A stretch of 64,000 nt of DNA from an uncultured Bacteroides sp. (GTDB lineage: Bacteria; Bacteroidota; Bacteroidia; Bacteroidales; JACABE01): contig CAZCBG010000008.1 of assembly GCA_964496885.1 (NCBI GenBank), positions 4,354 through 68,353 of the forward strand, given 5' to 3'. Both the position numbers and the translations under genes were made by a program. Of this stretch, positions 4,800-34,552 are shown one piece after another. The notes under the pieces were generated by a model, which saw only the letters and a program-made list of their open reading frames with translations, was not told the origin of the DNA and made no database searches. The first letter of the stretch is position 1, and each line of letters starts with the position of its first letter.

Positions 4800-4805
4800 T
4801 TTTAA

Positions 4806-6705: not shown

Positions 6706-6761
6706 TTAATAATAACTTAATTTTAATTTAACATACCAGGCGTTATACTAACTTATATTTG
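6706..6761 (+). promoter_or_regulatory. Candidate Pho-box-like array plus Bacteroidota -7 element
   Basis: ttaataa (6706), ttaattt (6717), ttaacat (6728) at an 11-bp period; TATATTTG at 6754, 26 bp after the last repeat start. Confidence 0.55.
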
Positions 6762-6787
6762 CAGTATTATTTTAATACATATCAAAT

Positions 6788-7138
6788 ATGAAAAAATTAG
6801 TTTTATTAATCGTTATAATTACTGCTACAATCTATTTTACTCAGGCGGGTGAACCTCTAAAAACTGAAAAAATAACTGAGTCCCAGCTTGTATTAAAAGG
6901 CAAAGTAATTGACAAAAAAACCGGTGAAACTTTAGTAGGTGCTGTTGTTAATGTTGGAAATTCTGAATATAAAACATATACCGATTTAGATGGTAATTTT
7001 GAAATAAAAAATGTAAAAGAAGGAAATTATAATATTGTTGTGTCATATATTTCTTATCACTCTAGTTTGGTTGAACAGACAATCGTAAAATCTTTAAATA
7101 CTTCTTTAGAGATCGAACTGATTGAAGATAACAAATAA
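6788..7138 (+). CDS. Secreted stand-alone carboxypeptidase-regulatory-like (TBDT N-terminal extension-type) domain protein
   Basis: Signal peptide followed by LKGKVIDKKTGETLVGAVV...TDLDGNFEI...YNIVVSYISY; only 116 aa, with no barrel. Confidence 0.85.
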   Translation: MKKLVLLIVIITATIYFTQAGEPLKTEKITESQLVLKGKVIDKKTGETLVGAVVNVGNSEYKTYTDLDGNFEIKNVKEGNYNIVVSYISYHSSLVEQTIVKSLNTSLEIELIEDNK

Positions 7139-7167
7139 GCGTTTTCTCATCTATATATATCCCCCCT

Positions 7168-7210
7168 GCCGTAATAAATATATTGAAAATTATATTTTTA
7201 CGGCTTTTTT
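7168..7210 (+). terminator. Probable intrinsic terminator
   Basis: gccgtaataaatata...tatatttttacggc stem followed by tttttt. Confidence 0.6.
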
Positions 7211-7282
7211 ATGTAATTTTGTAAATGTAATACACATTGCATTTCAAAAACTAATTCTCAATAAATATTTTATTCATACATT

Positions 7283-7744
7283 ATGAAAAAGGCATTTTTA
7301 TTCATCATTAGTATTTTATTCCTTAATCTTTCATTTTTATTTTCGCAACAACTGGAAATTAAAGATGGTATTTATTATAAAGATAAAAAGCTATATACTG
7401 GAATTCATAAAGAATACTATGAAAATGGAAATTTGAAGATGGAATTAAGTATTACAAATGGTCTAAACGAAGGAATATCAACTTATTATTTTGAAAATGG
7501 CAAGAAAAAAGAACAACAGTCATATACAAAAGATGAAAAAGATGGGCTTTGGATTACATGGAATGAAGAGGGAATTAAAAACGCTGAAGCTCGTTATCTG
7601 AAAGGTAAAAAACATGGAATATGGTACATCTGGGATGAGAAAGGGAACCTCATTAGAGAAATGCTATATGAAAATGGAGAAAAAGCAGGTGTTTGGAAAA
7701 TGTGGGATTCCAATGGAAACCTAATACAGGAAAAAAAATATTAA
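7283..7744 (+). CDS. Secreted MORN-variant repeat protein (YwqK-like repeats)
   Basis: Signal peptide; repeats of YYENG.LK, YFENGKKK, WNEEG.K, WDEKGNL, WDSNGNL. Confidence 0.85.
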   Translation: MKKAFLFIISILFLNLSFLFSQQLEIKDGIYYKDKKLYTGIHKEYYENGNLKMELSITNGLNEGISTYYFENGKKKEQQSYTKDEKDGLWITWNEEGIKNAEARYLKGKKHGIWYIWDEKGNLIREMLYENGEKAGVWKMWDSNGNLIQEKKY

Positions 7745-8226
7745 AAAAAACAAATTCCCTTTAATTACAAAACCAGCTTAAGTTATTAATCCACACACAT
7801 AATTTACATTCCCATGTAAATAAGTAAGAATTACATTTATATATTTAATTTACCCTTAAAAGGCAAAACCAATCCTGCTTTTAATTTTCAAAATAATTAC
7901 CCCCGTCTTTACAAAATTTAATAGTGCTTGCAAAGAGATTTAAACCATTTAATAAGTGCTATTATAATAGCTTTGTCAGATTATCAACTGAATAAAAAGT
8001 CGTGATTCCTCATTTAAATTTCTAATTTACTTCACCCAATTTTAGTCTTACCGCAAATATAATATTTCATACTTCAATTTTGCTCCCTTTACATTTCGTT
8101 TTGCCAACAGCTTATTATTGTAGTAAAATGCAATAGAAGCATTCTAATTATCGCCACCCGTTAACTAATTTGATAGGCTGCAATATTAGGACACACAGCA
8201 TACATATTTATAATAACTTAATATAG

Positions 8227-8304
8227 TTAACATAAAATCAAACAAAAATTAAAGTAATAGTGAAATAATGTTAACACATTTTAGTTTTCTTTCAACTTAT
8301 TTTG
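8227..8304 (+). promoter_or_regulatory. Candidate Pho-box-like array plus variant -7 element upstream of the triple phosphatase
   Basis: ttaacat (8227), tcaaaca (8238), ttaaagt (8249), gtgaaat (8260), ttaacac (8271); TTATTTTG at 8297, 26 bp after the last repeat start. Confidence 0.6.
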
Positions 8305-8479
8305 CATAAAAAGTTTTAACAAATTTTATGAATATGAGAAAAAAATGAAACTAGAAAATTTAGAAATAAACAGCAAATATTTCTTAAATAAAAAAGGAAT
8401 TAAATGCAATAAAAGCAATTATTCCATGGCATATAATCCATGTTATTTAAAAAATGGTCTTTTACCATAAAATATCTAT

Positions 8480-11400
8480 TTGGATAAAAATATTGATACT
8501 TTAATAAATACTATTGAAATTATTAAAAAAATGAAAAGAAAAAAATACTTTTTAGATTATTTTCCTAAGAACTTCAGGAAAAAGTTTTTTAACACCCTGC
8601 TATTGGGGATTTGTATGCTTGGGTTTATGAGCAAAACCGAAGCTCAGATACAATTTGTTTATACATCTGACGCGCATTATGGTATTACCAGAGCCCGTTT
8701 TCAGAAAGCTGCCAATGTAAGTGCAACTGTTGTTAATGGAGCAATGATTGCTAAAATGAACAATCTTACTCAATTGACATTCCCTAATGATGGTGGAGTT
8801 AGATCAGGTTATAAAGTTGACAGTGTTGATTTTGTTGTAATGACCGGCGATATAGCCAATCGTTCTGAAACTACTATTATTCCAACCCTGAGTGCTTCTA
8901 CTTGTTGGTCGCAATTTGCCAATGATTACATTAATGGAACTACATTAAAAGATAAAACGGGTAGCAATTCAAAACTTTATTTATTACCTGGAAATCATGA
9001 TGTTTCCAATGCTATCGGGTTTTACAAAACGATGTCTCCTTTAAAGGATAGTGCTACTATGGTTAACATTTATAATATGATGATGCCAAGTCCACGGGCT
9101 GCAGGTAATTACAACTATGCTAATGAAAAAATTCATTATTCAAAAAATATTGGTGGCATTCATATGATGTTTGTTTGTATGTGGCCAGACTCTACAGAAC
9201 GTGTTTGGATGGCAAACGATTTAGCTACTGTTAGTTCTACAACTCCGGTATTTATTTTTACGCATGATCAGCCTTTAGTAGAATCAAAACATTTAAGCAA
9301 CCCAAATTCACCTTATACAATAAATAGTACTAATAAATTTGAAAATTTATTGTTAGAAAAATTTAAAGATGGAACTGCAATAACTGCTCCTTCCACTATT
9401 GAACAAAATGGCTTTGCAAGTTTTGTACAAGCACACCCTAACATTGTTGCGTATTTTCATGGTAATGATAATCAAAACAATTATTATAAATACTATGGAC
9501 CCAATAATAATATTGCTATAGATATTATTCAGGTTGATTCTCCAATGAAAGGGAATATATCTGCAACAGATGAAACCAAATTATCTTTCCAGTTAATTAC
9601 CATCGATACTTTATTAAAAGTGATGACCGTTCGCGAATGTCTTTATAATACAGATACCAATAATGTATATTCACCTATTATTTTTGGGAGTTCAAAAACC
9701 ATAAATTTTGATGTTGCTAACTATGCTCAAAATACCAGCACAGCCGGCACAAAGATATGCTCAGCAACTGATTTACATTTAATGCATCCATCATTATTAG
9801 TGAATGACGGAGTTGCTTTCCAAACTTATCTTGCAAGCGATAGAAAACTTATAAAAGAAAGTAATGCTATTATGCAGGAACTTAAAAACAGAATTTACGA
9901 AGAAAGACCTGAAATTTTCTTAGTTCCAGGAGATCTTACTAAAGATGGTGAAAAAATAAGTCACCAATTAATGGCTACTTATCTTGATTCTATTGAAATG
10001 AACGGAGTAACTAAAGTATATGTTATTCCCGGAAATCATGATGTGAATAACGTTAGTGCTTACAGTTATGATGGAAGTAATGTTACTAAAGTAGATTCAG
10101 TTTCTCCTTCTGATTTTAAAACTATATACAATAATTTTGGTTATGGCGAAGCTGTTAAAACAGATACTGTTTCTCTTTCCTATCTTGCAAAACCTAAATC
10201 TAAAACCTGGGTTTTAGGAATAGATGTTTTAGAATACGATTTAAATATGGCGGCCGGATATCCTATCACAGAAGGCAAATTTAAACCTTCTACTTATAAA
10301 TGGGTTCTCGACCGATTAAAAGAAGCAAAAGATTCAAGTGCTGTTGTTTTAGGTATGATGCATCCTGGACTTACCGAACATTATACCGGACAAAGTGTAT
10401 CTTTCCCCGAATATGTTGTTTTAGGTTGGGATACTATTTCAAAAAACTTTGCAAAAGCAGGATTAAAAATGATGTTTACAGGACATTTTCATGCAAATGA
10501 TATAACCAAAAAATCTAATCCAGGAAATTCTTCTTTTGTTTATGATATTGAAACAGGCTCAACGGTAACATGGCCTTGTCCTTACAGAGTTATGGATCTT
10601 AAAGGAGATAGTATATTAAATGTAGTTACCAACCGTATTCAGAATATTAATTACAATACCAATGGCATGACATTCCAGAATTATGCCTTGAATTATTTAA
10701 ATACTGGTATGACTGGTATTATAAATTATCAGTTAACTCATCCACCTTATTCTTTGGATGCAGGTACAGCAGCTGCTGTTACACCTCATGTTGTAAGTGC
10801 CTTTACAGCCCATTATGCGGGTGATGAAACAATACCTGCCTCTGAACAGGGATTTATCAGCTATTTAAATTCAGTTGGACAATTTTCACTTGCTTCTTCT
10901 TTAACTAATATGTGGACAGATTTAACCCCAAGTGATAATCTTGTTGCTTTGCCATTAAAGAGTTCAATTGATACTATTAATACTATTATTAATAATTTAA
11001 TTCAATCTGACTATACTGTACCAAGCTGGACTCTTTTCTTAAGAGCTAAAACAGCAATGGTTGCTAATCAGGATTCTGCAAGTATTGCTAATATGTATTC
11101 TGTGATTGCAAAAATGAAATCTTCATCTATGCCATACAATATAGTAATGAATATTAATAAAGATCCTAAAACCAAGATGGCTTTCAACTGGTTTACCAAT
11201 GCTGGTGTAACTGGCGGACAAGTTCAGATAGTAACTGGAAATACAAATGATACTTTAGCATTTAATACTCCATTAATGGTTGTAAGTGCTAGATGTGATT
11301 CAGCTAAAAATCTTAATTATAGCAATAGTGCAAATGGGTTATTACCATTAACCGGTATTGCTGATAATTCTAAAAAAACTTATATGTTTAACAAAGCTTT

Positions 11401-13942
11401 AGTAAATGGTTTAACTCCAAACACACAATACTCTTTCAGAGTTGGTAAAAACGGAGCTTGGAGTACTATTGGATCTTTCAAAACTGCAAAAACTACCAAA
11501 GATGCTTTCTCTTTTGTTTATTTTACCGATCCACAAGCAAACACTGATGCCATGTTTAATGTTTCTCAAATTACCACTCATGCTGCTCAGACCATGTATC
11601 CAAATGCTAACTTCTGGTTAAGCTGTGGTGATTTGGTGGAATCCTCAGGTTCGGCAAATTCAGAATGGGAATATGAACAATTTTTCGAGACACAACAGGA
11701 TATTTTCATGAAGAATCCTTTTGCTCCTATTGAAGGAAACCATGACATTACTACAAATAAAAACTTTACCTACCATTTTAACACTGATTCTGTTGCTTTT
11801 GATTATGCAAAAGCAACAACACCCGGTAGCGTTTATTCATATGTTTATGGTGATGCTTTATTTATGCACTTGACTTACGAAAATTACAGTACAACAGGTT
11901 ATCTTGATTCATTGGCTAACTGGATGAATACCCAGGTAAAAGCTAATCCAACTACAAAATGGAGAATAGCCGTTTATCATAAAACAATGTATACAGGAAG
12001 CCAAAGTCATCAAAGTGATTCAGATGGTAAAACAGTTCGTTTGAAAATGGGACCTGTTTTCGATAGTTTAAAAGTAGATTTAGCTTTCCAGGGACATGAT
12101 CATGTTTATGAAATAATTGGACCTGTAAAAAATGTTTCATTAATACCTAATGCTGTTTCTAATCAAACTATAGTTACTGCAACGGTACGTGATAATGTTA
12201 CCGGATTACTAGGTGGTACTTTTGATGTAAAACAAGGAACATTATTTTTCTTAAACAATTCAGCTGGAAAGAAAAAATATGAACCACGTTCTTTAGCTCA
12301 AATGAATGCAGCTTATTCTGCAACACAAGTTCCAAATTATTTTGGAATGTTTACAGGTAGATTTGGTCAAACAGGCGAACCTACTTTCAGTAATGTTACT
12401 ATTAGTACTGATTCAATCAATATTTCTACTTATACTGTTGATAGTGTAGGAAATTCAACTATTTTTGATTCGTACAAAATTGTTAAAACTGATCAAGATA
12501 ATACATGGAATGGTTCTGCTGATAACAATTGGAACAAAGCTTCAAACTGGTCAGAAGGATTAATACCTACCCAGAATCAGAATGTGATAATACCTACTAA
12601 CGTTCCTAATTTCCCGACCGTTAGTTCTCCAGCTATCATTAACAATCTGACTGTTCAATCCAATTCAACTGCAACTGCCTCATTGTTGGATAATGGCCTT
12701 TTAACTTTAAATGGTAATGCTAGCATTAAATGTTACTTAAGTGGAAACAAATGGCATATGATTTCAATTCCAGTTCAATCAGCTACTTCAAGTGTATTTA
12801 ACTTAGGAGCCGGACAAGCTGATATTTATGCTAAAGGATACAGCAATGGTAACTGGGATAGTTTGATAACAAATCCAACTACTCCGCTTGTACTTAATAA
12901 AGGTTATGCTGTTTGGGCTGATACCCTAACTAATTCTACACCAAATCCAACATTAACTTTTACCGGAACTTTCAATACAGGAATCCAAACGCTACCTACC
13001 GAAACTGGCTGGAACCTGATCGGGAATCCTTTTATTTCTGCTATTGACTGGAATACGCTGAATTTAACCAATGTCAATGGTCAGGCTGTTAGAGTTTGGA
13101 ATCATGATTTACAACTTTATTCAACTTATAGCGCAATTGGTGGAGGTGTAGATGGTGGTAATCAATATTTATCTCCAATGCAGGCTTTCTTTGTTAAAGG
13201 ATTGAATACTGATGGTATAGCAATTTCTCATCCAAACAGAATTCATAATCCTCAACCTTTAATGAAAAGTGCTAACTCAACTATCAGTAATTTATTAAAA
13301 ATAAAAGCTCAGAGAAGTACTTATACTGATGAGATTAATGTTGTCTACAATACCATTGCAACGAATGGATATGATCCATTGTATGATGCCAATAAATTAT
13401 TTGTAACGGATAATAACATTCCTCAGGTATATTCATTAGCTAATAACAATGAATTAGCTATCAATGTATTTGGAAGTTTACCTGCAGCTATTCCTATGAA
13501 CATCAAATTAGGCGTTCCAGGAATTGTTAGTTTGACAGCTTCTGAAACAAATAGTTTTGATGCAAATATTTCAATTAAATTAGAAGATATTTTAAGTGGA
13601 ACTATTCAGGATTTACGCCAAAACCCTGTTTACGCTTTTAGTGCTTCGGCAAATGAAAATGCAAATAGATTCATTTTACATTTTGCATTGGCTCCAAATA
13701 GTATAAATGAAGCACCAATCAACAATACAAGTATTTATGCTTTCGATAAAACTATTTATGTAAATTCTAATGATAAAGTTAAAGAAATCAGTATTTATAA
13801 TATGCTTGGCCAGTTAATAACTTCAAAAATATGCAATGGCAGTGCCTTTAACTCAATTTCAATAAATAAAGCTTCAGCATTTTATATGGTTAGAGTTATT
13901 ACTGACAAAACTACTTACTCTGAAAAAGTATTTATAAAATAA
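8480..13942 (+). CDS. T9SS-secreted multidomain phosphoesterase: three calcineurin-like metallophosphoesterase domains (third is purple-acid-phosphatase type with FN3), a beta-rich stalk and a T9SS CTD (likely start is the ATG at 8531)
   Basis: Three motif sets: SDAHYG/GDIAN/GNHD/THDQ/FHGND; TDLHL/GDLT/GNHD/MHPG/GHFH; TDPQ/GDLVE/GNHD/YHKT/GHDH. Signal peptide ends TEA-Q. C-terminus YNMLGQL...KVFIK. Confidence 0.9.
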   Translation: MDKNIDTLINTIEIIKKMKRKKYFLDYFPKNFRKKFFNTLLLGICMLGFMSKTEAQIQFVYTSDAHYGITRARFQKAANVSATVVNGAMIAKMNNLTQLTFPNDGGVRSGYKVDSVDFVVMTGDIANRSETTIIPTLSASTCWSQFANDYINGTTLKDKTGSNSKLYLLPGNHDVSNAIGFYKTMSPLKDSATMVNIYNMMMPSPRAAGNYNYANEKIHYSKNIGGIHMMFVCMWPDSTERVWMANDLATVSSTTPVFIFTHDQPLVESKHLSNPNSPYTINSTNKFENLLLEKFKDGTAITAPSTIEQNGFASFVQAHPNIVAYFHGNDNQNNYYKYYGPNNNIAIDIIQVDSPMKGNISATDETKLSFQLITIDTLLKVMTVRECLYNTDTNNVYSPIIFGSSKTINFDVANYAQNTSTAGTKICSATDLHLMHPSLLVNDGVAFQTYLASDRKLIKESNAIMQELKNRIYEERPEIFLVPGDLTKDGEKISHQLMATYLDSIEMNGVTKVYVIPGNHDVNNVSAYSYDGSNVTKVDSVSPSDFKTIYNNFGYGEAVKTDTVSLSYLAKPKSKTWVLGIDVLEYDLNMAAGYPITEGKFKPSTYKWVLDRLKEAKDSSAVVLGMMHPGLTEHYTGQSVSFPEYVVLGWDTISKNFAKAGLKMMFTGHFHANDITKKSNPGNSSFVYDIETGSTVTWPCPYRVMDLKGDSILNVVTNRIQNINYNTNGMTFQNYALNYLNTGMTGIINYQLTHPPYSLDAGTAAAVTPHVVSAFTAHYAGDETIPASEQGFISYLNSVGQFSLASSLTNMWTDLTPSDNLVALPLKSSIDTINTIINNLIQSDYTVPSWTLFLRAKTAMVANQDSASIANMYSVIAKMKSSSMPYNIVMNINKDPKTKMAFNWFTNAGVTGGQVQIVTGNTNDTLAFNTPLMVVSARCDSAKNLNYSNSANGLLPLTGIADNSKKTYMFNKALVNGLTPNTQYSFRVGKNGAWSTIGSFKTAKTTKDAFSFVYFTDPQANTDAMFNVSQITTHAAQTMYPNANFWLSCGDLVESSGSANSEWEYEQFFETQQDIFMKNPFAPIEGNHDITTNKNFTYHFNTDSVAFDYAKATTPGSVYSYVYGDALFMHLTYENYSTTGYLDSLANWMNTQVKANPTTKWRIAVYHKTMYTGSQSHQSDSDGKTVRLKMGPVFDSLKVDLAFQGHDHVYEIIGPVKNVSLIPNAVSNQTIVTATVRDNVTGLLGGTFDVKQGTLFFLNNSAGKKKYEPRSLAQMNAAYSATQVPNYFGMFTGRFGQTGEPTFSNVTISTDSINISTYTVDSVGNSTIFDSYKIVKTDQDNTWNGSADNNWNKASNWSEGLIPTQNQNVIIPTNVPNFPTVSSPAIINNLTVQSNSTATASLLDNGLLTLNGNASIKCYLSGNKWHMISIPVQSATSSVFNLGAGQADIYAKGYSNGNWDSLITNPTTPLVLNKGYAVWADTLTNSTPNPTLTFTGTFNTGIQTLPTETGWNLIGNPFISAIDWNTLNLTNVNGQAVRVWNHDLQLYSTYSAIGGGVDGGNQYLSPMQAFFVKGLNTDGIAISHPNRIHNPQPLMKSANSTISNLLKIKAQRSTYTDEINVVYNTIATNGYDPLYDANKLFVTDNNIPQVYSLANNNELAINVFGSLPAAIPMNIKLGVPGIVSLTASETNSFDANISIKLEDILSGTIQDLRQNPVYAFSASANENANRFILHFALAPNSINEAPINNTSIYAFDKTIYVNSNDKVKEISIYNMLGQLITSKICNGSAFNSISINKASAFYMVRVITDKTTYSEKVFIK

Positions 13943-13978
13943 ACTAAATTTTATTAATTTTAAAATATATATATTAAC

Positions 13979-14200
13979 ATGAAAAATTCAATCAAAAAAA
14001 TTATCATACTTTTTTTTCTCTTAGCTGCCCCTGTTGTTATGAGCAATGTAATTGCTGATAACCCACAAAGTCCGGGTGGAAATCCATCAGGAGGAGTTCC
14101 CATTGATGGAGGAGCAAGTATAGTAATTGCTGCCAGCGCAATATATGGTGCCAGAAAAGCCCGTAAAGCATTGAAAACTAAAAAAGATGAAATTAATTAA
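13979..14200 (+). CDS. Small signal-peptide + PIDGG-TM-basic protein (PID-CTERM-like sorting-domain protein), copy 1
   Basis: Signal peptide (..VIA), then DNPQSPGGNPSGGV, then PIDGG, a hydrophobic helix and RKARK. 69/73 aa identical to the 26715 copy, with synonymous codon differences. Confidence 0.85.
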   Translation: MKNSIKKIIILFFLLAAPVVMSNVIADNPQSPGGNPSGGVPIDGGASIVIAASAIYGARKARKALKTKKDEIN

Positions 14201-14222
14201 TTAATCATTTCTTATACAATTC

Positions 14223-14259
14223 AAAGAGGCTGAATTCTTTCATAGATTCAGCCTCTTTT
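14223..14259 (+). terminator. Intrinsic terminator
   Basis: aaagaggctgaat-tctttcatag-attcagcctcttt(t), a 13-bp stem. Confidence 0.8.
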
Positions 14260-14403
14260 AATTTTATGTAATCAAAAAAAGCATTAAAAACTTTAATAAG
14301 TAGTGTATATTCTTTCGATGATGATCCTTGTTCTTTCAAAAGCTAATAATATATAATTAAATCATTTTTAAAAATTTATTCAGTTTCTCAATATTATTTA
14401 AGC

Positions 14404-14470
14404 TTAATATTTATATAATCATATCATAACATTAAATTAATCTGTTTTTAATTTACAATAATGAAATTTG
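14404..14470 (+). promoter_or_regulatory. Candidate Pho-box-like array plus variant -7 element upstream of the TBDR operon
   Basis: ttaatat (14404), ataatca (14415), ataacat (14426), ttaatct (14437), ttaattt (14448); GAAATTTG at 14463, 26 bp after 14437. Confidence 0.55.
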
Positions 14471-15323: not shown

Positions 15324-15350
15324 ATATATTAACCTTTAAATTATTACATT

Positions 15351-16448: not shown

Positions 16449-16481
16449 TTTTTTTCATCATTTAGTTTAATAACATTTCTT

Positions 16482-19703: not shown

Positions 19704-19721
19704 AAATTAATATCACTTATT

Positions 19722-21044: not shown

Positions 21045-21082
21045 ACAATCATCGCTTTCTAAAAAACAAAATAAATTTTACA

Positions 21083-22146: not shown

Positions 22147-22224
22147 TTAACATTATTTTAGTATTAATATAATTATTTCATAAACTTATCTTCTCTTTTA
22201 ATTAACCTAGCTACAATACATTTG
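22147..22224 (+). promoter_or_regulatory. Candidate Pho-box-like array (weaker) plus -7 element
   Basis: ttaacat (22147), ttagtat (22158), ataatta (22169), ataaact (22180), ttaacct (22202), all in 11-bp phase; TACATTTG at 22217. Confidence 0.45.
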
Positions 22225-26936: not shown

Positions 26937-26957
26937 TTAATCATTTTAATCAAAATC

Positions 26958-26993: not shown

Positions 26994-27048
26994 CTTATTT
27001 ATTTACATTTAATCAGTGCCTTAAAACATCTTAATAATATTTCAATTT

Positions 27049-27699
27049 ATGCTTATAAATCTTCAAAATCTCAAAGCTAAGATTCAAGAAATTAAATTAT
27101 CCATCAATAAAAATTATATTTTAAAAACATTTGGGATTCGCTTACTCCTATTAATGGGAGTTGGGGCCATTGTTTTATTTATATTAAGAAATAATTCTGA
27201 ACTGAAATACATGGTCCAACACGCTCAGTTTATATATGATTTTTATAGAACTATAATGTATTCAAGCTTATACATATTAAAATTTTTAGGATTTGATGCT
27301 TATATCTATTATTCCGAAACTATTTACAAATATGGAGTGTATGCAATGGGAATCGTTGGATCAAAGTCAATTTTTATGGGTATATCATGTATTGGAATGA
27401 CTTTAATGGGTGTATTTATTGCTTTAATCATTTCATATCCAGGAAAAATAAAACATAAATTATGGCTTATACCTAGTGGTTTAATTATCATTCAAATACT
27501 CAATATCGTACGAATGTGCACACTTACGATTTTAGTTCATAATGGATTCGTACATACATTTAATGATTACAATTTTTTAGGAATATTGAAATTTAATCAT
27601 CATGATCTTTTTAATTTTTTTATTTACATCATTATTTTTGGCATGTTTGTTTTTTACATTAATACATTTGGTTTAAAAAAACTTCAGAAAATGGGATAA
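27049..27699 (+). CDS. Exosortase/archaeosortase-family membrane peptidase
   Basis: Multi-TM protein with candidate triad Cys (ISCIG), Arg (LNIVR) and His (NHHDLF). ALIISYPG...KLWLIPSGL.II..LN..R matches the XrtF-like pattern. Lies next to a PIDGG protein. Confidence 0.8.
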   Translation: MLINLQNLKAKIQEIKLSINKNYILKTFGIRLLLLMGVGAIVLFILRNNSELKYMVQHAQFIYDFYRTIMYSSLYILKFLGFDAYIYYSETIYKYGVYAMGIVGSKSIFMGISCIGMTLMGVFIALIISYPGKIKHKLWLIPSGLIIIQILNIVRMCTLTILVHNGFVHTFNDYNFLGILKFNHHDLFNFFIYIIIFGMFVFYINTFGLKKLQKMG

Positions 27700-27924
27700 T
27701 ATTATAATAGAATCGATATTTTAAGACTTTTTAGTCAAAAGTATTTATAATTATTTCAAATAAAATTAATATGTAATTAATATGTTTTCAAATTAATAGT
27801 TGTAATTTTATATATGTTAAAAGCGGAATATAAATTAAAGCAATAATTTTTAAAAAAGAAACTAAACTTAAAACAATCTTTATTGACATATATGATTGAT
27901 TAAGTCTATTTTCTTGTTTTTGTC

Positions 27925-27954
27925 AGGGAGGAAATCATTTCCTCCCTTTTTTTT
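27925..27954 (+). terminator. Strong GC-rich intrinsic terminator
   Basis: agggaggaaat-c-atttcctccct followed by a T-run; 225 bp after the exosortase stop. Confidence 0.8.
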
Positions 27955-28008
27955 AATTATTCTTTAAAATTACGATAACATTTCTTCCAATTAAATCAAT
28001 TATTTTTG
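27953..28008 (+). promoter_or_regulatory. Candidate Pho-box-like array plus -7 element for the marC-family gene
   Basis: ttaatta (27953), ttaaaat (27964), ataacat (27975); TATTTTTG at 28001, 26 bp after the last repeat start. Confidence 0.55.
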
Positions 28009-28016
28009 CAAATAAA

Positions 28017-28637
28017 ATGAATCTATTTTTCCTCGTATTTGCAGCCCTATTCTCTATCATGAATCCTTTAGGTACCGTGCCTGTTTTTGTAGGATTAACC
28101 AAAGAAAAAACCAGAAAAGAAATTATTAATATCGCATTTTATGCTTCTTTGAACGTATTTATCATTCTTTTGATATCATTCTTTTTAGGAAAGTATTTGC
28201 TGATTTTCTTTGGCATCAGCATACAATCATTGAAGATTGCAGGGGGTATGATAATTACTACTTCCGGATTTGCATTGCTTAACGGTACATTTTCAAAGCA
28301 CAAAGGGATGAAAAAAGCTGTAAATGAAGATGCTTCCCTGCGATCGGACATTACCTTAACGCCTTTGGCCATTCCTATGCTGGCTGGACCAGGATGCATT
28401 TCGTTATTGATTACATATTATCAGGAATACAACAGTATCAGTGAAATGCTCATTTTAACATCCGCAATGCTTACGATTTCTGTAGTTATATTTTTTATAC
28501 TCAGAAGCTCTAATCTAATCGTTAAATATATGGGAGCATCCGGATTGAATGCATTATCACGGATAATTGGCTTTATTGTTATAGCTATTGGAGTAGAAAA
28601 TATTTTATCGGTTATACTTCTAATATTGAAAAAATAA
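28017..28637 (+). CDS. marC: MarC-family (NAAT) integral membrane protein
   Basis: LFSIMNPLGTVPVF, SLKIAGG, TPLAIPMLAGPG, LSRIIGFIVIAIGVE. Confidence 0.93.
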   Translation: MNLFFLVFAALFSIMNPLGTVPVFVGLTKEKTRKEIINIAFYASLNVFIILLISFFLGKYLLIFFGISIQSLKIAGGMIITTSGFALLNGTFSKHKGMKKAVNEDASLRSDITLTPLAIPMLAGPGCISLLITYYQEYNSISEMLILTSAMLTISVVIFFILRSSNLIVKYMGASGLNALSRIIGFIVIAIGVENILSVILLILKK

Positions 28638-28962
28638 TTTTCAAGTCTTCAAATTCTACATCAAAATTATTTGTAAAAGATAATTCATTACGTGAAATAA
28701 TGCTATTCATCCTTTTTGATAGATTTATTCTTTTTGATAGATTCTTTGACCATTCAGAAATTTTTTCAAAGGCTTTTATTAAAATAAGTGTCGTATTAAC
28801 GAACACGAAAATAATTGGAAAAATATGAAAATACTTCATTAAAAGGATGCTTAATGAATGGATATCAATTTGATAAACAAACAATGAGGATAAAATAATC
28901 ATTATAAGTATCGCTGTATAAAAAAACAGGTTGAAAAATAAGAAAAATTTCAGGGTTTTCAT
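28612..28962 (-). CDS. Hypothetical small membrane protein
   Basis: 116-aa ORF with two hydrophobic stretches, downstream of the GH13 gene; overlaps the marC 3' end by 26 bp. Confidence 0.4.
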   Translation of the reverse strand: MKTLKFFLFFNLFFYTAILIMIILSSLFVYQIDIHSLSILLMKYFHIFPIIFVFVNTTLILIKAFEKISEWSKNLSKRINLSKRMNSIISRNELSFTNNFDVEFEDLKIIFSILEV

Positions 28963-29060
28963 GGTTTTCGTTTAAAATTTATACAAAGTAAGCATATCTA
29001 TATTAACCTAATATGTAGTAAATATTAATTTTTTATGAAATCTTCCATTGCTATTTAAAG

Positions 29061-30680
29061 CTAAGAGGCATTGAGCTTATAAATTAAAGCTTCAAATGGA
29101 GACAATATAAGTTTATTTTCAATAAAATGTTCTTTTTCTGAAGTCTGTGATGAGAATAATATTTCAAATGCTCCAATTTCTTTAAGCTGAACGATTTTTT
29201 CGTGGGAACTGAAATTCAAAAATATACAGATAATTTCATCTTGATAAATTCTGGAGAAAGCAAAAGTGTCATCTTTACCTTTTTTCAGGAAACTAATTTC
29301 ACCTTTGTGCAAAGAGGGATGCTTTTTTCTGAGTTCAATAAGTGCTTGATAAATATTGAAAAGAGAATCCGTCTCATTCTCTTGAAACTGGACATTTGTT
29401 TCTTTATAATTTCTATGCACAGGCAACCATGGTTTTACAGTTGAAAACCCTGCAAATATATTTGTATTCCATTGCATGGGCGTTCTAGCTCCATCTCTGC
29501 CATTATAAATTGGCCAGTATTTTTTCCCTAAACTATCTTTAATACTTCGGTAAGGTATTCTGGAGTTTAGCATGCCAATTTCTTCGCCATAATAAATAAA
29601 AGGACTTCCTTTTAAAGTAAGTAGTAGCACTGCTTCTATTTTTGCTTTTTCAAGCTGGAATTTCCTTAAAGGATTTCTGTTGATGCTTCTTTTTAAATCA
29701 TGATTTGAAAGCACATAACAAGGCCAACCTCCATCTGGAATACTTGCATTCCACTTTTGAATACATTTATAATAAGCATTTGCATTCCACTTTTGGAAAA
29801 GCAAGGAAAAATCAAATGCCAGATGGATTCCTTTTTTACCATCGGCCAGATAGCTGGCAGAAAGCTTGGAGTTGCCGGGTGGCATTACATATACCTCTCC
29901 TACCAATACGCTTTCATCATATTTGTCAATCAATTTCCTGAGTTTTTTTACAATCTCATATGATTTAGGTCGATTTCTTGAATATTTATGTTGCTGAAGA
30001 AACGGAATATTAAGATTTAATGGATTGTTACGATATTTTTTATCCTTAACAATCATGTTTATCACATCTAACCTAAAACCATCTACTCCCAGCTCGAGCC
30101 AATACTTAATTTCTTCAAAAAAAACAAGCTGCATTTCTTTGTTGCGCCAGTTTAAGTCGGGTTGCTCTTTAAAAAATGAATGCAAGTAATATGCATTGGT
30201 TTTATCATCCAATTGCCAGGCAGTGTTTCCGAAAGAAGATTTCCAGTTATTTGGGGATTTTCCTTTTGGGGCAGTTTTCCATATATACCAATCCCGTTTG
30301 GGATTATCTATGGACGATTTTGATTCGAGAAACCATGGATGCTGATCAGAAGTATGATTCATAATCATATCCATAATTACTTTAATATTTTTGGAATGAG
30401 CAATTTCTAAAAGATTTTTAAAATCCTCCAGCTTGCCATATTCGGGGTTGATGGATGTATAGTCTGAAACATCATAACCATAATCTTTATTGGGCGATTG
30501 ATAAATAGGAGAAAGCCAGATCGCATCTATGCCTAAATGCACTAAATAATCAAGTTTGGAAACAATACCCTTTATATCACCAATACCGTCATTGTCACTA
30601 TCATAAAAACTTCGGGGATAAATATGATAAATTACGCCATGCTTCCACCATATCCATTCATTTTCTTTTTTATTATTCAT
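29061..30680 (-). CDS. GH13 alpha-glucosidase/oligo-1,6-glucosidase family
   Basis: YHIYPRSFYDS..DGIGD, catalytic GFRLDV, GEVY and SNHD, plus RDGARTPMQW. Confidence 0.93.
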   Translation of the reverse strand: MNNKKENEWIWWKHGVIYHIYPRSFYDSDNDGIGDIKGIVSKLDYLVHLGIDAIWLSPIYQSPNKDYGYDVSDYTSINPEYGKLEDFKNLLEIAHSKNIKVIMDMIMNHTSDQHPWFLESKSSIDNPKRDWYIWKTAPKGKSPNNWKSSFGNTAWQLDDKTNAYYLHSFFKEQPDLNWRNKEMQLVFFEEIKYWLELGVDGFRLDVINMIVKDKKYRNNPLNLNIPFLQQHKYSRNRPKSYEIVKKLRKLIDKYDESVLVGEVYVMPPGNSKLSASYLADGKKGIHLAFDFSLLFQKWNANAYYKCIQKWNASIPDGGWPCYVLSNHDLKRSINRNPLRKFQLEKAKIEAVLLLTLKGSPFIYYGEEIGMLNSRIPYRSIKDSLGKKYWPIYNGRDGARTPMQWNTNIFAGFSTVKPWLPVHRNYKETNVQFQENETDSLFNIYQALIELRKKHPSLHKGEISFLKKGKDDTFAFSRIYQDEIICIFLNFSSHEKIVQLKEIGAFEILFSSQTSEKEHFIENKLILSPFEALIYKLNAS

Positions 30681-30682
30681 TA

Positions 30683-33358
30683 TTATTGAAGCTCAACATC
30701 TTTTAAAAACTGATCGAGTATGGATGATTTATTATAGTTCTTCGAACGTTCGATAGCAGCTTTTTTAAATGATTTCTGTATTGAAATATCATTAAAGTAA
30801 TAAATAATATTGGATGCCATTTCATCGGTATTAGAAACAAGAAATCCATTTTTATTATCTTCAATAATATCTTTAGGTCCCTTAGTATTGTATGCAATTA
30901 CAGGCAATCCACAACTCAATGCCTCCAATACAACACAACTGAAAGTATCAAATTTTGAGGGCAAAATCAATAAATCAGCAGACGAATAAATCCCGGGTAA
31001 TTTATCATGATCCATCCAACCTAAATAGATTGCTTCTGGTAAAGCTTTTTTTAATTCTTGTTCTGCCGGGCCATTACCTGCAATAACAATTTGCAAATCA
31101 TGAATTTCGGCTTTTGCTCTTTTGTAAATTTCAGCCAATTCCATCACGCCTTTCTCTTTACTCAATCTTCCTGCAAAAAGTAAAACAGCTTGCTGTTGAT
31201 CAATATTAAAAAGTTTCTTTTTTGCAGTTTTCTTGGGGATGAATATATCTTCAACCCAATGGGCAGTATTGAAGACTCTGCTGGATTCAAAACCCATTTT
31301 TGAACTTGTCAGCCATTTTTGTTGATCTGAATTAAGCACAAATAAATTATCAAACGCATTGTAATACATTCTCAGCAGTCGGGTGAAACGGTTTAAATTA
31401 CTTCTGTCGATATTTAATACTTTTTTTGCAAACATAATCCAATCGGTATGAATATAAAAATACGCTTTTACAGAATACGCATTTTTGAGATAAATGGCAG
31501 CCAGGCCCATTAAACCTTCGGTAGAGCATATAATTCTGTCGTATTCGTTTTCATGAAAAAGTTTATGAATTTCAAGATAATTCGGCACTCTCATAGTTTG
31601 ATCTTTGTACATTGGCAAACTAAACTCAGCCAATGGTTTTATAACAATTAAGTGATCTGTTGCTTGAATATTATTGCTACATACAAGAATATCAATGGGT
31701 AAATTTCTTAATTTTATTTCCTGAAGCATTGATTGTAATACCATAGAAACACCATTGTTGTCATCAAATGTATCTGTAAGCCATAACATCCTTTTAGGAT
31801 GCTGAAGTTTGCCGATATTTTCGGAAAATGTCTGAAGCAAAGGCCTGACATTATACAATACCTTAGAACTGGCATAATTTGCAGCCAGTATCAAAGCTGA
31901 GGCTAAAAAGGGAAATGAAAGACCATCAAATAAATCAGATAAATTTGGATTACTCATCCTCTTATTTTTATCTTTGTTAAAATACTTGGTTTCATTTTCA
32001 ATATATGCTCTGAATTCGCTGGGCAATTCAAATTTATCGATCAGCATGTTCACATCAAAGTCTTTAAATTTACCTTGTAGTTGGAATTTATCAATTTTTT
32101 TCACCAATCTTTTAAAAAGTAAAGCATTTAGTTTATCGCTGATCGAAAAAACTGATTTCTTATAAATTTCAACAACATTTTCAGGATCATTTTTAGTAGT
32201 TTCGGCAATACTCATTGCATCTTTAAAAATAGGTTTGTACACCTTAGGCACTAATATTTTTTTAGACAATGAGGGGACTTTCCCTTGAAAACAATTGTGA
32301 AACAGCTCAATAAAGTTCATGGTAACTCTATGTCTTCTCAACTCAGCAAATCCATTGGAAACCAATAAAGCTATCAGTTTATCCTGTGAAGTCCCTTTAT
32401 GTAATAGAATTCTCAGTAAACCCGGATCATTTCTATTGAGTGCTATCTGGAATACATAATCCAAAAAAGCTACGGTAAGTTTTTCACTATTATGATGGGA
32501 ACCATAAGGAGCCATATTTCCATCTTTGATTGCCTGTAATGCAAGTTCAGATGGTTTAAAATCTTTTAGTTTTACATTTAACTGAGGAACATACAACAAG
32601 GTACCTGTTAATCCCGAGAAAAAACCCATGTGACTGTCAGAACCTCCCGACATTGATTTTTTATAAGGATCTTTACAATATCGGTTGGCTGGAATTCCAA
32701 ACTCTTTAGATAATTCATCAATTTTTTCGGGTGTTATACTTTCCAACCAATTTTTAACCAGCATATTTTGCCAGCTATCTCTTTGTCCATTCAAAACTTC
32801 AAATCGTTCAAAAACCAAAGCCATTTTATTAAAAAAAGCCAAATTAGGAATGCCAGATGTGTTATAATGATACAATGGATGGGCCCAAATAGTAGGGATG
32901 TCATTTTCTAAGGCATAATCCTGAAAAGCATAGATGTTTTTTCTAAGTTTATTGAGCATTTTTTCCTGACTTGGATTAAATCCATACGTTAAAACATGAA
33001 TTCCAATATTAAAATCAGGTACTGTACAACTGAATTCTGCAGCAGTAAGTATATCAAAACCTTTATCCTGCATTTCGTAGCAAGATCTGGCATTGTTATG
33101 ATTGGTAATTGTAAAAGCTGAGCAATCGTTTTGTTTAAGTGTTTTTATCAATGTTTCCGACTTTAACCATGTTTCTGGCAAATTCAGTATTCGGCCCAAT
33201 AACTCATCAGGAACATCACTGTTGTAATCATGACAATGCAAGTCTATCCTCAACGTATCGTCAATAGGGTACTTTGCAAATTGTTGCGTTTGAAAAATAT
33301 TCAATTCATTGATTAATTCTTTTTGAAAAGAATGCTCTTTTAAAGATAATTGCTTCAT
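30683..33358 (-). CDS. PHP-phosphoesterase-GT4 glycosyltransferase fusion
   Basis: PHP motifs DLHCH, TITNHN, AAEF, WAHP, GGSDSH; GT4 motifs TDTFDDNNGV, FAGRLSKEKG, PSKFDTFSCVVLEALSCGLPVI. Confidence 0.88.
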   Translation of the reverse strand: MKQLSLKEHSFQKELINELNIFQTQQFAKYPIDDTLRIDLHCHDYNSDVPDELLGRILNLPETWLKSETLIKTLKQNDCSAFTITNHNNARSCYEMQDKGFDILTAAEFSCTVPDFNIGIHVLTYGFNPSQEKMLNKLRKNIYAFQDYALENDIPTIWAHPLYHYNTSGIPNLAFFNKMALVFERFEVLNGQRDSWQNMLVKNWLESITPEKIDELSKEFGIPANRYCKDPYKKSMSGGSDSHMGFFSGLTGTLLYVPQLNVKLKDFKPSELALQAIKDGNMAPYGSHHNSEKLTVAFLDYVFQIALNRNDPGLLRILLHKGTSQDKLIALLVSNGFAELRRHRVTMNFIELFHNCFQGKVPSLSKKILVPKVYKPIFKDAMSIAETTKNDPENVVEIYKKSVFSISDKLNALLFKRLVKKIDKFQLQGKFKDFDVNMLIDKFELPSEFRAYIENETKYFNKDKNKRMSNPNLSDLFDGLSFPFLASALILAANYASSKVLYNVRPLLQTFSENIGKLQHPKRMLWLTDTFDDNNGVSMVLQSMLQEIKLRNLPIDILVCSNNIQATDHLIVIKPLAEFSLPMYKDQTMRVPNYLEIHKLFHENEYDRIICSTEGLMGLAAIYLKNAYSVKAYFYIHTDWIMFAKKVLNIDRSNLNRFTRLLRMYYNAFDNLFVLNSDQQKWLTSSKMGFESSRVFNTAHWVEDIFIPKKTAKKKLFNIDQQQAVLLFAGRLSKEKGVMELAEIYKRAKAEIHDLQIVIAGNGPAEQELKKALPEAIYLGWMDHDKLPGIYSSADLLILPSKFDTFSCVVLEALSCGLPVIAYNTKGPKDIIEDNKNGFLVSNTDEMASNIIYYFNDISIQKSFKKAAIERSKNYNKSSILDQFLKDVELQ

Positions 33359-33387
33359 ACTATTAATATTATTTTAATAATCCTTTG

Positions 33388-33454
33388 CAAAATAATAATT
33401 TATTAAGCAAAATACAATGGTTTGAATATTAATTTATTGTGAATTTATTATTAA
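33388..33454 (-). promoter_or_regulatory. Candidate Pho-box-like array plus variant -7 element for the PHP-GT4 operon
   Basis: Minus strand: ttaataa (33454), ttcacaa (33443), ttaatat (33432); TTATTTTG starts at 33395, 37 (26+11) bp after 33432. Confidence 0.55.
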
Positions 33455-33481
33455 ATTATTATGCAAGCAATAAATATTATT

Positions 33482-33537
33482 ATAATGTTTAAATAATATT
33501 GCCTTAATGTAGGTAAGAATTATTTATATTTATTTTG
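33482..33537 (+). promoter_or_regulatory. Candidate Pho-box-like array plus variant -7 element for the third PIDGG protein
   Basis: ataatgt (33482), ataatat (33493), ttaatgt (33504); TTATTTTG at 33530, 26 bp after the last repeat start. Confidence 0.5.
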
Positions 33538-33565
33538 CAAAAGATAAAAAAAATATGATAACACA

Positions 33566-33799
33566 ATGAGAAATATAATTTTTACTTTATTAATTATAAT
33601 GGGAAGTATTGGTTTATTTGCACAACCTATACCTCCGGGTGGTGGTGTAGCTGGAGCAGGACATGGATTAAGTGGCAATCAGGGTGGCAATGGAGCTCCT
33701 ATTGATGGTGGTTTCAGTATATTAATACTCTTGGGAGCAATTTATGGAGCAAAAAACATTAAAAAAATAAATAAAAATGATGAAAATATAAATGCATAA
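33566..33799 (+). CDS. Small PID-CTERM-like protein, divergent third member
   Basis: Signal peptide (LFA-Q), then QPIPPGGGVAGAGHGLSGNQGGNGA, then PIDGG, FSILILLGAIYGA and a basic tail. Confidence 0.82.
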   Translation: MRNIIFTLLIIMGSIGLFAQPIPPGGGVAGAGHGLSGNQGGNGAPIDGGFSILILLGAIYGAKNIKKINKNDENINA

Positions 33800-34038
33800 A
33801 GCGATGAATAGTAAATAAACAATCTGAAAATCATGAGAATCAGATATATAACAAGATAATAGCCATGAGTATTTTTTATTACTATTACATCGCTTTTAAA
33901 ATTTTAAACAAATATAAATGAAATATATTTTCTTCAATTACAATTCAAATAAATTATTGTAATTATTTGACTACCTGCCCTGTTTTTTTTCAAAACAATC
34001 AATAACAAATCCTTTGTTATAATTCTCAAACGAAAGCT

Positions 34039-34064
34039 AAACTCCCTATTTAGGGAGTTTTTTA
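34039..34064 (+). terminator. Intrinsic terminator in a long intergenic region
   Basis: aaactccct-attt-agggagttt followed by ttt. Confidence 0.7.
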
Positions 34065-34165
34065 TACTTTAAAATTTACAATATTGAATAATGAAAGATT
34101 TCTCTAAGAAACAATTAATATTAAATATTAATTAAACTATTACTATTTAATAAGTTAAAACAAAA

Positions 34166-34360
34166 TTAATCTTCCCATATTGCAACTAGCAAGAATTCAT
34201 CCGGATGTTTGGAATTATTTTTATCAAAAACATAAACTAAACCTCCCCTCCTATAGAAAAAATACATATTACTTTCACTCACTAAATTGCAATGAGCATC
34301 TTGCAAAAACTTTTTACTATATTTTTGACCTTTTAAGAGCAGATTATCAATTACATTCAT
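34166..34360 (-). CDS. Possible small hypothetical protein
   Basis: 64-aa ATG-started ORF with protein-like composition; no recognisable motif. Confidence 0.25.
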   Translation of the reverse strand: MNVIDNLLLKGQKYSKKFLQDAHCNLVSESNMYFFYRRGGLVYVFDKNNSKHPDEFLLVAIWED

Positions 34361-34496
34361 ATAAAAATATTTTTACAAAAATAATATATTACAAAGTCAT
34401 CATAATTATTGTTAGAATAATAAATCATTAATTTTTAGTTTTAAATCACTGATTTTTATAAAAAATTTTTAGTCAAATATGTTTAAGACCAAAATG

Positions 34497-34552
34497 GTAA
34501 CATTAAATTAAAATAAACGAAACATTGAATAAGTTTAAGTTTCATAAATTTG
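34497..34552 (+). promoter_or_regulatory. Candidate Pho-box-like array plus -7 element for the GT4-dedA operon
   Basis: gtaacat (34497), ttaaaat (34508), gaaacat (34519); TAAATTTG at 34545, 26 bp after the last repeat start. Confidence 0.6.

Follow-up and report, generated by a model that had tools for sequence, protein, structure and literature searches.

The phosphate gene cluster

We analysed 64 kb of DNA (the window; 64,000 nucleotides, positions 4,354 to 68,353 of contig CAZCBG010000008.1, assembly GCA_964496885.1) from an uncultured Bacteroides sp., in which a series of promoters carries head-to-tail arrays of 11-bp repeats in a fixed register to the -7 box. We take these arrays to be predicted Pho boxes, the operators of the OmpR-family regulator PhoB, of a Bacteroidota bacterium, and give this reading a probability of about 85%. 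The G+C content is 32% for both the window and the genome, and the intergenic DNA is 77% A+T. A scan of a genome collection with PstC gave as the closest match the uncultured Bacteroidota metagenome-assembled genome (MAG) ELA489 (PstC 94% identical), and as remoter relatives MAGs of Bacteroidales, Lentimicrobiaceae and Prolixibacteraceae together with Flavobacterium species.

The window opens on the plus strand with the 3' end of pstS (1-270), pstC, pstA, pstB and phoU (1-4204 in all, assigned by Pfam), downstream of which lie genes for a CYTH protein, an unannotated 287-aa protein and a CHAD protein (4332-6660); CYTH and CHAD are domains tied to triphosphate and polyphosphate metabolism. A small CarboxypepD_reg-like protein (6788-7138) and a MORN protein come next, then a secreted 1820-aa metallophosphoesterase/purple-acid-phosphatase with a type IX secretion system (T9SS) tail (probable start 8531), an operon at 14541-21889 encoding, in that order, hypothetical, T9SS-tail, SusC-like TonB-dependent receptor, T9SS-tail and Fib_succ_major proteins, an unannotated 609-aa protein (22268-24097), a Big_7/T9SS protein (24116-26683), an exosortase-family protein (27049-27699; best matches XrtX and XrtY, below cut-off) and marC (28017-28637). 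The minus strand carries an unannotated 116-aa open reading frame (ORF; 28612-28962), an alpha-amylase-family gene (29061-30680) and the gene of an 891-aa GT4 glycosyltransferase (30683-33358). Back on the plus strand are a 77-aa PID-CTERM micro-protein (33566-33799), a 346-aa GT4 enzyme resembling the glycolipid glycosyltransferases IagA, BgsA and Dgs (34696-35736) and a VTT/DedA protein (35720-36334), and a DUF386 (YhcH/YjgK/YiaL) gene (36506-36967) lies on the minus strand. Beyond 37.3 kb the genes are housekeeping ones: NADH-dehydrogenase-like subunits, molybdopterin oxidoreductase, PfkB, EF-G, GTPase, acyltransferases and an mraZ-mraW-PBP division cluster.

The upstream end could be followed in L001, the same contig with 9.6 kb of extra upstream DNA, found by exact PstC look-up (2 mismatches over the 6,684-bp overlap). 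There an OprO/P-type porin gene precedes pstS, and their promoter lies 2.1 kb upstream of the window. The phosphate-scavenging cluster spans about 39 kb, its ends being the porin promoter at window -2.1 kb and position 37.25 kb, with some eleven array-bearing promoters; the figure of about 36 kb in an earlier note on this DNA, made from the letters alone, was too small. Judged from the sequence, the gene content fits a Pho regulon, with pstSCAB-phoU, CYTH and CHAD proteins, a metallophosphoesterase, a TonB-dependent receptor operon and glycolipid-type glycosyltransferases.

Repeat arrays and their phase lock

The earlier note had proposed the repeat unit (T/A/G)TAA(C/T)AT at eight promoters. 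The strict heptamer [TAG]TAA[CT]AT occurs 259 times on the two strands of 73.6 kb and is of no use as a stand-alone signal; single heptamers are so common that only arrays and their register carry information. A matrix trained on the window itself was circular, overfitting its top 12 arrays, and was therefore replaced by one built from other species. For this we collected 80 related loci of about 20 kb each from other species by the PstC scan, and ran expectation-maximisation motif discovery (width 33, both strands, random seeds, periodicity not imposed) on the ORF-free gaps that lie 0.7-4.5 kb upstream of pstC in 78 species, excluding the window and its near-identical relative L002. The best motif, AATTAATATTTATTTAACATTAACTTAACATTA, has information peaks at 11-bp intervals and consists of three phased units. 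Pooling 65 unique sites gave the unit [T/G]-T-A-A-[C/T]-A-[T/A]-T and, behind it, three weak positions, with T2, A3 and A4 near-invariant, C or T at position 5 and little information at positions 9-11; the [T/G]TAA[C/T]AT recovered independently from other species' pst gaps matches the unit first proposed.

When this 33-bp matrix was run over the window and L001 and scored against the window's own A+T-rich intergenic background, 10 intergenic windows reached at least 8 bits, as against 0.43 expected (maximum 4) in 300 dinucleotide-preserving shuffles, and none of 127,070 coding positions did so. The distinct matrix sites are the pstS promoter, 6704, 14402, 33480, 34495, 37218(-) and 28998(-).

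The Bacteroidota primary-sigma promoter consists of a -33 TTTG and, after 19-21 bp, a -7 TAnnTTTG. We scored three adjacent units at all offsets from 12 to 63 upstream of the 162 intergenic TTTG anchors, an offset of 30 from TTTG corresponding to 26 bp before the start of the -7 8-mer. Seven anchors reached at least 9 bits at offset 30 and three at offset 41, with at most one at every other offset. A more forgiving statistic, T, which takes the best three of five in-phase units and compares them with an off-phase null, placed nine anchors above the 99.9% null quantile (0.16 expected). All eight promoters of the earlier note have p <= 0.0012 on this statistic, its four control -7 elements have p = 0.08-0.79 and nothing similar to the heptamers upstream, and the housekeeping promoters of the window lack arrays by both the other-species matrix and T.

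The eight -7-like boxes themselves are all present where the earlier note placed them, four of them canonical TAnnTTTG, three TTATTTTG and one GAAATTTG, and heptamers of the WTAAYAT type are found at 26+11n bp upstream of each, TTAACAT, ATAACAT, TTAATAT and GTAACAT being among those that align when the DNA is cut at this spacing. Six of the eight are individually strong (6754, 14463, 28001, 33395(-), 33530 and 34545) and two are weak (8297 and 22217); three further sites had been missed, namely the pstS promoter, 37216-37248(-) and 28996-29028(-).

The sites are built of head-to-tail 11-bp units, usually three or four of them, each with the core [T/G]TAA[C/T]A[T/A]T and about three weak bases. 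All units point with transcription, every strong site has three or four of them on the strand of its downstream gene, and one unit starts 26, 15 or 26+11n bp before the -7 box. This whole-turn register to the -7 box places the array on one face of the helix. At the strong sites the -33 TTTG 19-21 bp upstream of the -7 box is missing and a repeat unit such as TTAACAT or TTAATAT stands there instead, as expected of an activator-dependent promoter. The arithmetic of the earlier note holds: the -33 TTTG position falls within a heptamer whose first base is 26 bp upstream of the 8-mer.

The pst operon promoter, where a lack of the repeat would by that note's own test have counted against the idea, carries an array. 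The porin-pstS promoter (TTAACAAtttcTTAATATtaacTTAATCCtggcTTAATAAccat, L001 7478-7521) has four units, TTAACAAtttc TTAATATtaac TTAATCCtggc TTAATAAccat, followed by 15 bases and then TATTTTTG, so that the proximal unit starts exactly 26 bp before this box. Array and promoter together occupy L001 7478-7544 (plus strand, equivalent to window -2109 to -2043), and the array scores 23.9 bits with the other-species matrix.

Both the array and its register extend across the phylum. In most of the 80 loci listed, the top-scoring array in the whole 20 kb or so is found at the pst operon promoter, on the coding strand and 2.3-3.4 kb ahead of pstC. In 65 unique pst promoters we measured how far the first TTTG lies from where the last unit begins: the distance is 19 bp in 44, 30 bp in 4 and 41 bp in 3, so that 51 of 65 are in phase against 1 in 11 by chance. 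Taking the 25,334 TTTG anchors anywhere in the 1.36 Mb of pstC loci, the counts at offsets 19, 30, 41, 52, 63 and 74 are 80, 85, 36, 15, 5 and 7, and off-phase offsets have a mean of 1.0 and a maximum of 5. Metagenome loci totalling 271 kb and picked through an unrelated GT4 gene gave in-phase counts of 4, 7 and 2 against 0.1. The phase lock is therefore phylum-wide. The 26-bp register given in the earlier note holds in the window's clade; in Flavobacterium and Prolixibacteraceae the commonest register is 15 bp, one turn nearer.

Among 121 phase-locked sites in the related loci, 109 stand ahead of homologues of the window's cluster genes: porin (68 sites), the 609-aa protein (14), PstS (7), TonB-dependent receptor (7), CarboxypepD_reg protein (5), 891-aa GT4 (5), PhoU (2) and 346-aa GT4 (1). 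Unit sequences vary between species while positions stay. Genomes of 40-51% G+C keep both the position-5 C of the unit and the precise register, which rules out A+T richness as the explanation of the arrays. In the MAG locus L106, a close relative, the cluster is rearranged and the sites are kept at the phosphoesterase, both GT4 genes and the small minus-strand ORF. Phase lock, specificity for phosphate genes and conservation between species are each borne out by these data.

Sites of the cluster

The array ahead of the CarboxypepD_reg-like gene (6706-6738, plus strand; TTAATAAtaac TTAATTTtaat TTAACATacca) lies 48, 37 and 26 bp before TATATTTG at 6754-6761 and scores 20.3 bits with the other-species matrix and 16.1 bits at offset 30. 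Three units in the 26-bp register recur at the orthologous promoters of L006, L008 and L009; L082 shares this register, and in L050 it is 15 bp. No array was seen in the window tests ahead of the CYTH, 287-aa and CHAD genes, which may thus be transcribed by read-through from the pst operon or from a promoter at 4860.

The site of the giant phosphoesterase (8227-8281, plus strand) is weak and atypical, with good units only at 70 bp (TTAACAT, 8227) and 26 bp (TTAACAC, 8271) and a marginal one, TTAAAGT, at 48 bp before the -7 box TTATTTTG at 8297-8304 (three-adjacent-unit score -3.0; T = 11.9, p = 0.0006). The 86%-identical phosphoesterase orthologue in L106 retains the 26- and 70-bp units. The gene probably starts at 8531, ahead of a signal peptide, and the listed TTG start at 8480 is likely too early; a 41-aa ORF (8345-8470, plus strand) lies between the promoter and this start.

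The operon of the TonB-dependent receptor is headed by four units (14404-14447, plus strand; TTAATATttat ATAATCAtatc ATAACATtaaa TTAATCTgttt) 59, 48, 37 and 26 bp before GAAATTTG at 14463-14470, scoring 15.1 bits with the other-species matrix and 14.1 bits at offset 30. The orthologous site in L009 reads ATAAACT/ATAACTC/TTAATAG in the same register before GATATTTG, so that the GAnnTTTG form of the box recurs there, and homologous TonB-dependent receptors have arrays of their own in six Flavobacterium loci and one Mariniphaga locus. Upstream of the 609-aa and Big_7/T9SS genes the site is degenerate (22147-22212, plus strand), with strong units only at 70 bp (TTAACAT, 22147) and 15 bp (TTAACCT, 22202) from the -7 box TACATTTG at 22217-22224 and near-neutral sequence between them. 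By T (7.6, p = 0.0012) it is, with 8297, among the weakest two of the eight. Homologues of the 609-aa protein (about 26-34% identity) carry a three-unit array in the 26-bp register in 14 of 14 Flavobacterium loci.

Ahead of marC, three units (27953-27985, plus strand; TTAATTAttct TTAAAATtacg ATAACATttct) lie 48, 37 and 26 bp before TATTTTTG at 28001-28008, with 9.9 bits at offset 30. In L006 a separate two-unit site, TTAAAAT/TTAATAT ahead of TTATTTTG, serves marC, and in L106 an in-phase array lies upstream of the gene. In two other loci, L004 (about 8800-9532) and L007 (about 13700-14420), marC is the final gene of the pst operon, joined to phoU with no gap. One of the two newly found sites within the window (28996-29028, minus strand; TTAATATttac TACATATtagg TTAATATagat) stands 37, 26 and 15 bp before TTACTTTG (28991-28984), upstream of the 116-aa ORF; it scores 9.5 bits with the other-species matrix and T = 10.4 at the 15-bp register (p = 0.0006), and the orthologous site is retained in L106 ahead of a called 99-aa gene.

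The genes of the 891-aa GT4 and the alpha-amylase-family protein are preceded by three units (33422-33454, minus strand; TTAATAAtaaa TTCACAAtaaa TTAATATtcaa) 59, 48 and 37 bp before TTATTTTG (33395-33388; T = 15.1, p = 0.0006). In L085/L088, L100 and L103, metagenome loci whose G+C content is 40-51%, orthologues of this GT4 (56-62% identity) are preceded by three-unit arrays in the exact 26-bp register to TACATTTG, TTCCTTTG or TAAATTTG, and L106 has the same array layout as the window. The N-terminal domain of some 500 aa (residues 1-520) has no Pfam match (E <= 0.5) and no PDB sequence match; the full-length protein recurs at 52-67% identity in 23 metagenome loci. A PHP phosphoesterase domain, prompted by an HxH...NHNN pattern in the N-terminus, was dropped for want of a Pfam or PDB match.

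On the opposite strand the array of the PID-CTERM micro-protein (33482-33514; ATAATGTttaa ATAATATtgcc TTAATGTaggt) lies 48, 37 and 26 bp before TTATTTTG at 33530-33537, with 12.1 bits by the other-species matrix and 14.0 bits at offset 30. In the 77-aa protein a signal peptide is followed by a Gly-rich middle part and, at the C-terminus, by a PID-CTERM sorting domain (NF046080; score 26.7 bits, cut-off 26). The exosortase-family protein is encoded 6 kb away, and it is possible that the two form a pair of sorting enzyme and substrate within a phosphate-starvation cluster. The array ahead of the 346-aa GT4 and VTT/DedA genes (34497-34529, plus strand; GTAACATtaaa TTAAAATaaac GAAACATtgaa) is placed 48, 37 and 26 bp before TAAATTTG at 34545-34552 and scores 9.2 bits with the other-species matrix and 10.8 bits at offset 30. 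In L004 (orthologue 82% identical) ATAACTT/ATAATAT/TTAATAT stand at the same 48, 37 and 26 bp before the same box, TAAATTTG, and ATAATAT/TTAAACT/GAAACAT are retained in L106.

The right edge of the cluster is marked by the other new site (37216-37248, minus strand; TTAAAATtgat TTAATATtaaa TTAATATttaa), 48, 37 and 26 bp before TACTTTTG (37200-37193), with 10.2 bits by the other-species matrix and 15.4 bits at offset 30. Between this promoter and DUF386 (36967-37200, minus strand) there is only a 27-aa ORF, and the interval could be a long leader or hold an unannotated small RNA or peptide; an Rfam scan of the long leaders, this one included, gave no match.

Four further candidates were set aside. 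At the junction of the pstB stop and the phoU start, TTAATTTtgtc GCAACATtata TTAAGATgaca (3491-3523, plus strand) is kept in L002, L009 and L010, where coding constraint may account for its conservation; it overlaps or abuts coding sequence, has no downstream -7 box and falls below the 7-bit listing threshold of the independent matrix. An array at 8242-8274 on the minus strand mirrors the 8297 region, has no downstream gene and gains no support from the independent matrix, and one at 27755-27787 (plus strand) has no in-phase TTTG. Finally, the two units TTAATAA/TTAATAT at 48584-48616 (minus strand), upstream of OlsA/OlsB-like genes, are one base out of register (36 bp).

PhoB as the predicted activator

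The phoB-phoR genes themselves provide a link between arrays and regulator. In the Flavobacterium zhoui locus L055, the minus strand encodes a homologue of the 609-aa protein and then a TonB-dependent transporter, and the plus strand a PhoB-type regulator, a histidine kinase, a porin-like protein, two PstS proteins and pstCAB-phoU, with a GT28 glycosyltransferase farther on. Arrays stand before the 609-aa homologue, the TonB-dependent transporter and the porin-like gene, so that phoB-phoR is flanked by them. A PhoB homologue and kinase adjoining pst and flanked by arrays are found in some 26 Flavobacterium loci and in L007 (61% identity), and PhoB homologues of about 37-43% identity lie by pst in other Bacteroidia loci, several of them Prolixibacteraceae. 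In its arrangement the L055 layout resembles the phoBR cluster Fjoh_0541-0549 of F. johnsoniae, whose TonB-dependent transporter and FII lipoprotein are among the proteins most induced by phosphate depletion (PMC8115612). In B. fragilis, PhoB binds a 512-bp fragment of the pst promoter and is needed for pstC expression (PMC3547664).

From these comparisons we infer binding by PhoB, activation rather than repression and induction at low phosphate. By analogy with the PhoB paradigm (PMC4415409, PMC1906773), PhoR would phosphorylate PhoB when phosphate is low, and PhoB~P would oligomerise on the array and recruit RNA polymerase with the Bacteroidota primary sigma factor to promoters that have no usable -33 element. 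The genes switched on in this way would be the porin-pstSCAB-phoU operon, the giant secreted phosphoesterase (weak site), the TonB-dependent uptake operon with its T9SS-secreted proteins, the 609-aa homologue of the Flavobacterium phoB-phoR neighbour (weak site), marC, the PID-CTERM micro-protein, the 116-aa protein, DUF386 and two glycosyltransferase operons, which would probably make phosphorus-free glycolipids. That a single phosphate-response activator might govern these genes, as the earlier note supposed, is supported by the specificity for pst promoters, the gene content and the conservation at homologues.

The gene content and positions of the arrays also bear on whether another OmpR-family regulator, ArcA-like or concerned with general envelope or stress responses, could be the one that binds, the phosphate overlap being coincidental or the sites being shared with PhoB. 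The regulator gene of the window's arrays lies outside the window, and the binding motif found for Riemerella anatipestifer PhoP by sequencing after DNA affinity purification (DAP-seq), with its TTTAACA core, has been called ArcA-like and was located upstream of 764 genes, with pstS unmentioned in the part of that report available to us (PMC9603813). We nevertheless judge this explanation unlikely, given that the strongest site falls at the pst operon promoter in most of the loci listed, that arrays flank phoB-phoR beside pst in Flavobacterium and that the genes concerned are overwhelmingly phosphate-related. A slightly smaller chance is left to PhoB acting on the arrays as a repressor. The proximal unit does overlap the -33 position, where a bound protein would block RNA polymerase, and some promoters are repressed by PhoB-family regulators. 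Activation is favoured since pstS shares this architecture and is activated by PhoB in every case tested, B. fragilis pstC included (PMC3547664), and since Flavobacterium genes with this architecture share the layout of the F. johnsoniae cluster induced by phosphate depletion (PMC8115612); moreover, a box that stands at a fixed distance in place of the upstream promoter element is the textbook arrangement of an activator (PMC1906773, PMC4415409).

One might also suppose that no protein is involved, the periodic TTAA-rich runs reflecting chance, intrinsic curvature or UP-like elements of A+T-rich promoters. The base composition of the intergenic DNA, the abundance of single heptamers and the closeness of 11 bp to the helical repeat would agree with this, but it is highly improbable in view of the excess over dinucleotide shuffles, the lack of arrays at the window's housekeeping promoters, the off-phase background of about 1 against 80-85 in phase, and the persistence of the position-5 C and the register in the G+C-richer genomes. 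For the assignment to PhoB itself, several observations count on the other side. There are no phoB-phoR genes in the window or in L001, and the 37200(-) promoter lies 218 nt upstream of the nearest gene, at the start codon of DUF386. Sites 8297 and 22217 both fail the three-adjacent-unit test, and in a genome of 32% G+C with such A+T-rich intergenic DNA weak sites are not callable one by one. Phosphoesterase homologues of 52-62% identity in L107-L110 have no arrays, which makes the phosphoesterase the least secure target. Several of the related loci are close relatives, so that part of the conservation is shared ancestry. Lastly, the broad regulon and ArcA likeness described in the part of the Riemerella PhoP report available to us mean that a TTAACA-type repeat may serve more than one OmpR-family paralogue.

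The PhoP box of B. subtilis consists of TT(A/T/C)ACA direct repeats about 11 bp apart at Gram-positive sigma-A promoters; its core TTAACA is nearly identical to the units described here, and the sigma-A promoters differ. PHO boxes in general are built of 11-nt direct repeat units with 7 conserved and 4 less conserved bases (PMC4415409), and the present arrays share with this class the 11-bp repeats, the tandem orientation of the units, the fixed distance to the -7 box with replacement of the upstream element, and a presence at pst and other phosphorus-acquisition genes that is conserved between species. The E. coli PHO box, with pstS as its archetypal target, has two 11-nt units with the core CTGTCAT, lies 10 bp upstream of the -10 hexamer and replaces the -35 element (PMC1906773, PMC4415409). 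It is like the present arrays in its direct repeats of 7 + 4 bases, its fixed promoter spacing and the replaced upstream element; here, by contrast, the core is TTAACAT, the units are usually three or four, the -7 element is TAnnTTTG read with the Bacteroidota primary sigma factor, and the registers are 15 and 26 bp. Closest in sequence and layout is the cyanobacterial Pho box (SphR/PhoB of Synechocystis and relatives), predicted by phylogenetic footprinting and made up of at least three tandem CTTAACCT 8-mers with 3-bp linkers (Su et al. 2007, PMC1906773), which has the TTAAC core in common with the [c/t]TTAAC-A-T unit and is likewise found at both pst and phosphatase promoters. It belongs to another phylum and another regulator orthologue, the last two core positions are CT there and AT here, and no fixed -33/-7 register was described for it.

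Within the phylum, R. anatipestifer (Flavobacteriales) has an OmpR/PhoB-family regulator, PhoP, that is upregulated on phosphate starvation and whose DAP-seq core TTTAACA was confirmed in an electrophoretic mobility shift assay; as far as the accessible part of that report goes, it targets among others a TonB-dependent receptor and a dedA/VTT gene, the ArcA-like motif occurs at hundreds of virulence-linked genes, and 11-bp phased arrays, a -7 register or pst genes are not described (PMC9603813). The phosphate-depletion regulon of F. johnsoniae comprises OprP, TonB-dependent transporters, unannotated lipoproteins, a glycosyltransferase and PlcP beside phoBR (PMC8115612), the same kinds of genes as in the window's cluster; neither this paper, which nowhere uses the word 'promoter', nor the one on B. 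fragilis PhoB defines an operator sequence (PMC3547664, PMC8115612). On sequence grounds the arrays belong to the known OmpR/PhoB kind of direct-repeat operator and are closest to the cyanobacterial CTTAACCT box and the Riemerella TTTAACA motif. We found no published definition of a Pho box for Bacteroidota in the literature; a 2026 preprint naming both 'Pho box' and 'Bacteroidota' (bioRxiv 10.64898/2026.09.15.751765) may bear on novelty.

In soils, lakes, oceans and guts much of the recycling of organic phosphorus is done by Bacteroidota, whose phosphate-starvation regulon is so far known from the proteomics of a few cultured strains. A rule of sequence and register would make Pho regulons predictable in MAGs and direct PhoB targets separable from indirect ones. 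It is a little better than an even bet that the Bacteroidota Pho box is a -33-replacing [T/G]TAAYAT array with two registers only (15 and 26 bp, plus whole turns), strict enough for the regulons of uncultured Bacteroidota to be read from sequence, and that it places the PID-CTERM micro-protein, MarC, DUF386, the 116-aa protein and the two-glycosyltransferase module under phosphate control. The arrays would also offer a clean test system for an OmpR-family activator working with the unusual Bacteroidota primary sigma factor, in which whole- and half-turn spacing or the 15- and 26-bp registers could be compared. They nominate the 609-aa and 116-aa proteins, the PID-CTERM micro-protein, DUF386 and MarC as phosphate-starvation gene candidates and, if the prediction is true, unexpected genes such as an exosortase-type sorting substrate and an 891-aa enzyme with an uncharacterised 500-aa N-terminal domain would be under phosphate control.

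Some other features of the window may be recorded. Beyond the cluster, an OlsB-like (Acetyltransf_5) and an OlsA-like (Acyltransf_2) acyltransferase (46698-47630 and 47663-48520, both minus strand) are candidate aminolipid synthesis genes, and in L107 (6260-7954) fused OlsB/OlsA-like domains are encoded next to the genes of a Metallophos_2 protein and a large-phosphoesterase homologue. The sole Rfam match of the window is a tRNA gene at 42424-42497 (minus strand). Within the pst operon, the 143-bp gap between pstS and pstC holds a G+C-rich inverted repeat with a T-rich tail (aacctgacag ... ctgtcaggtt, 328-355, plus strand), which looks like an intra-operon terminator or attenuator.

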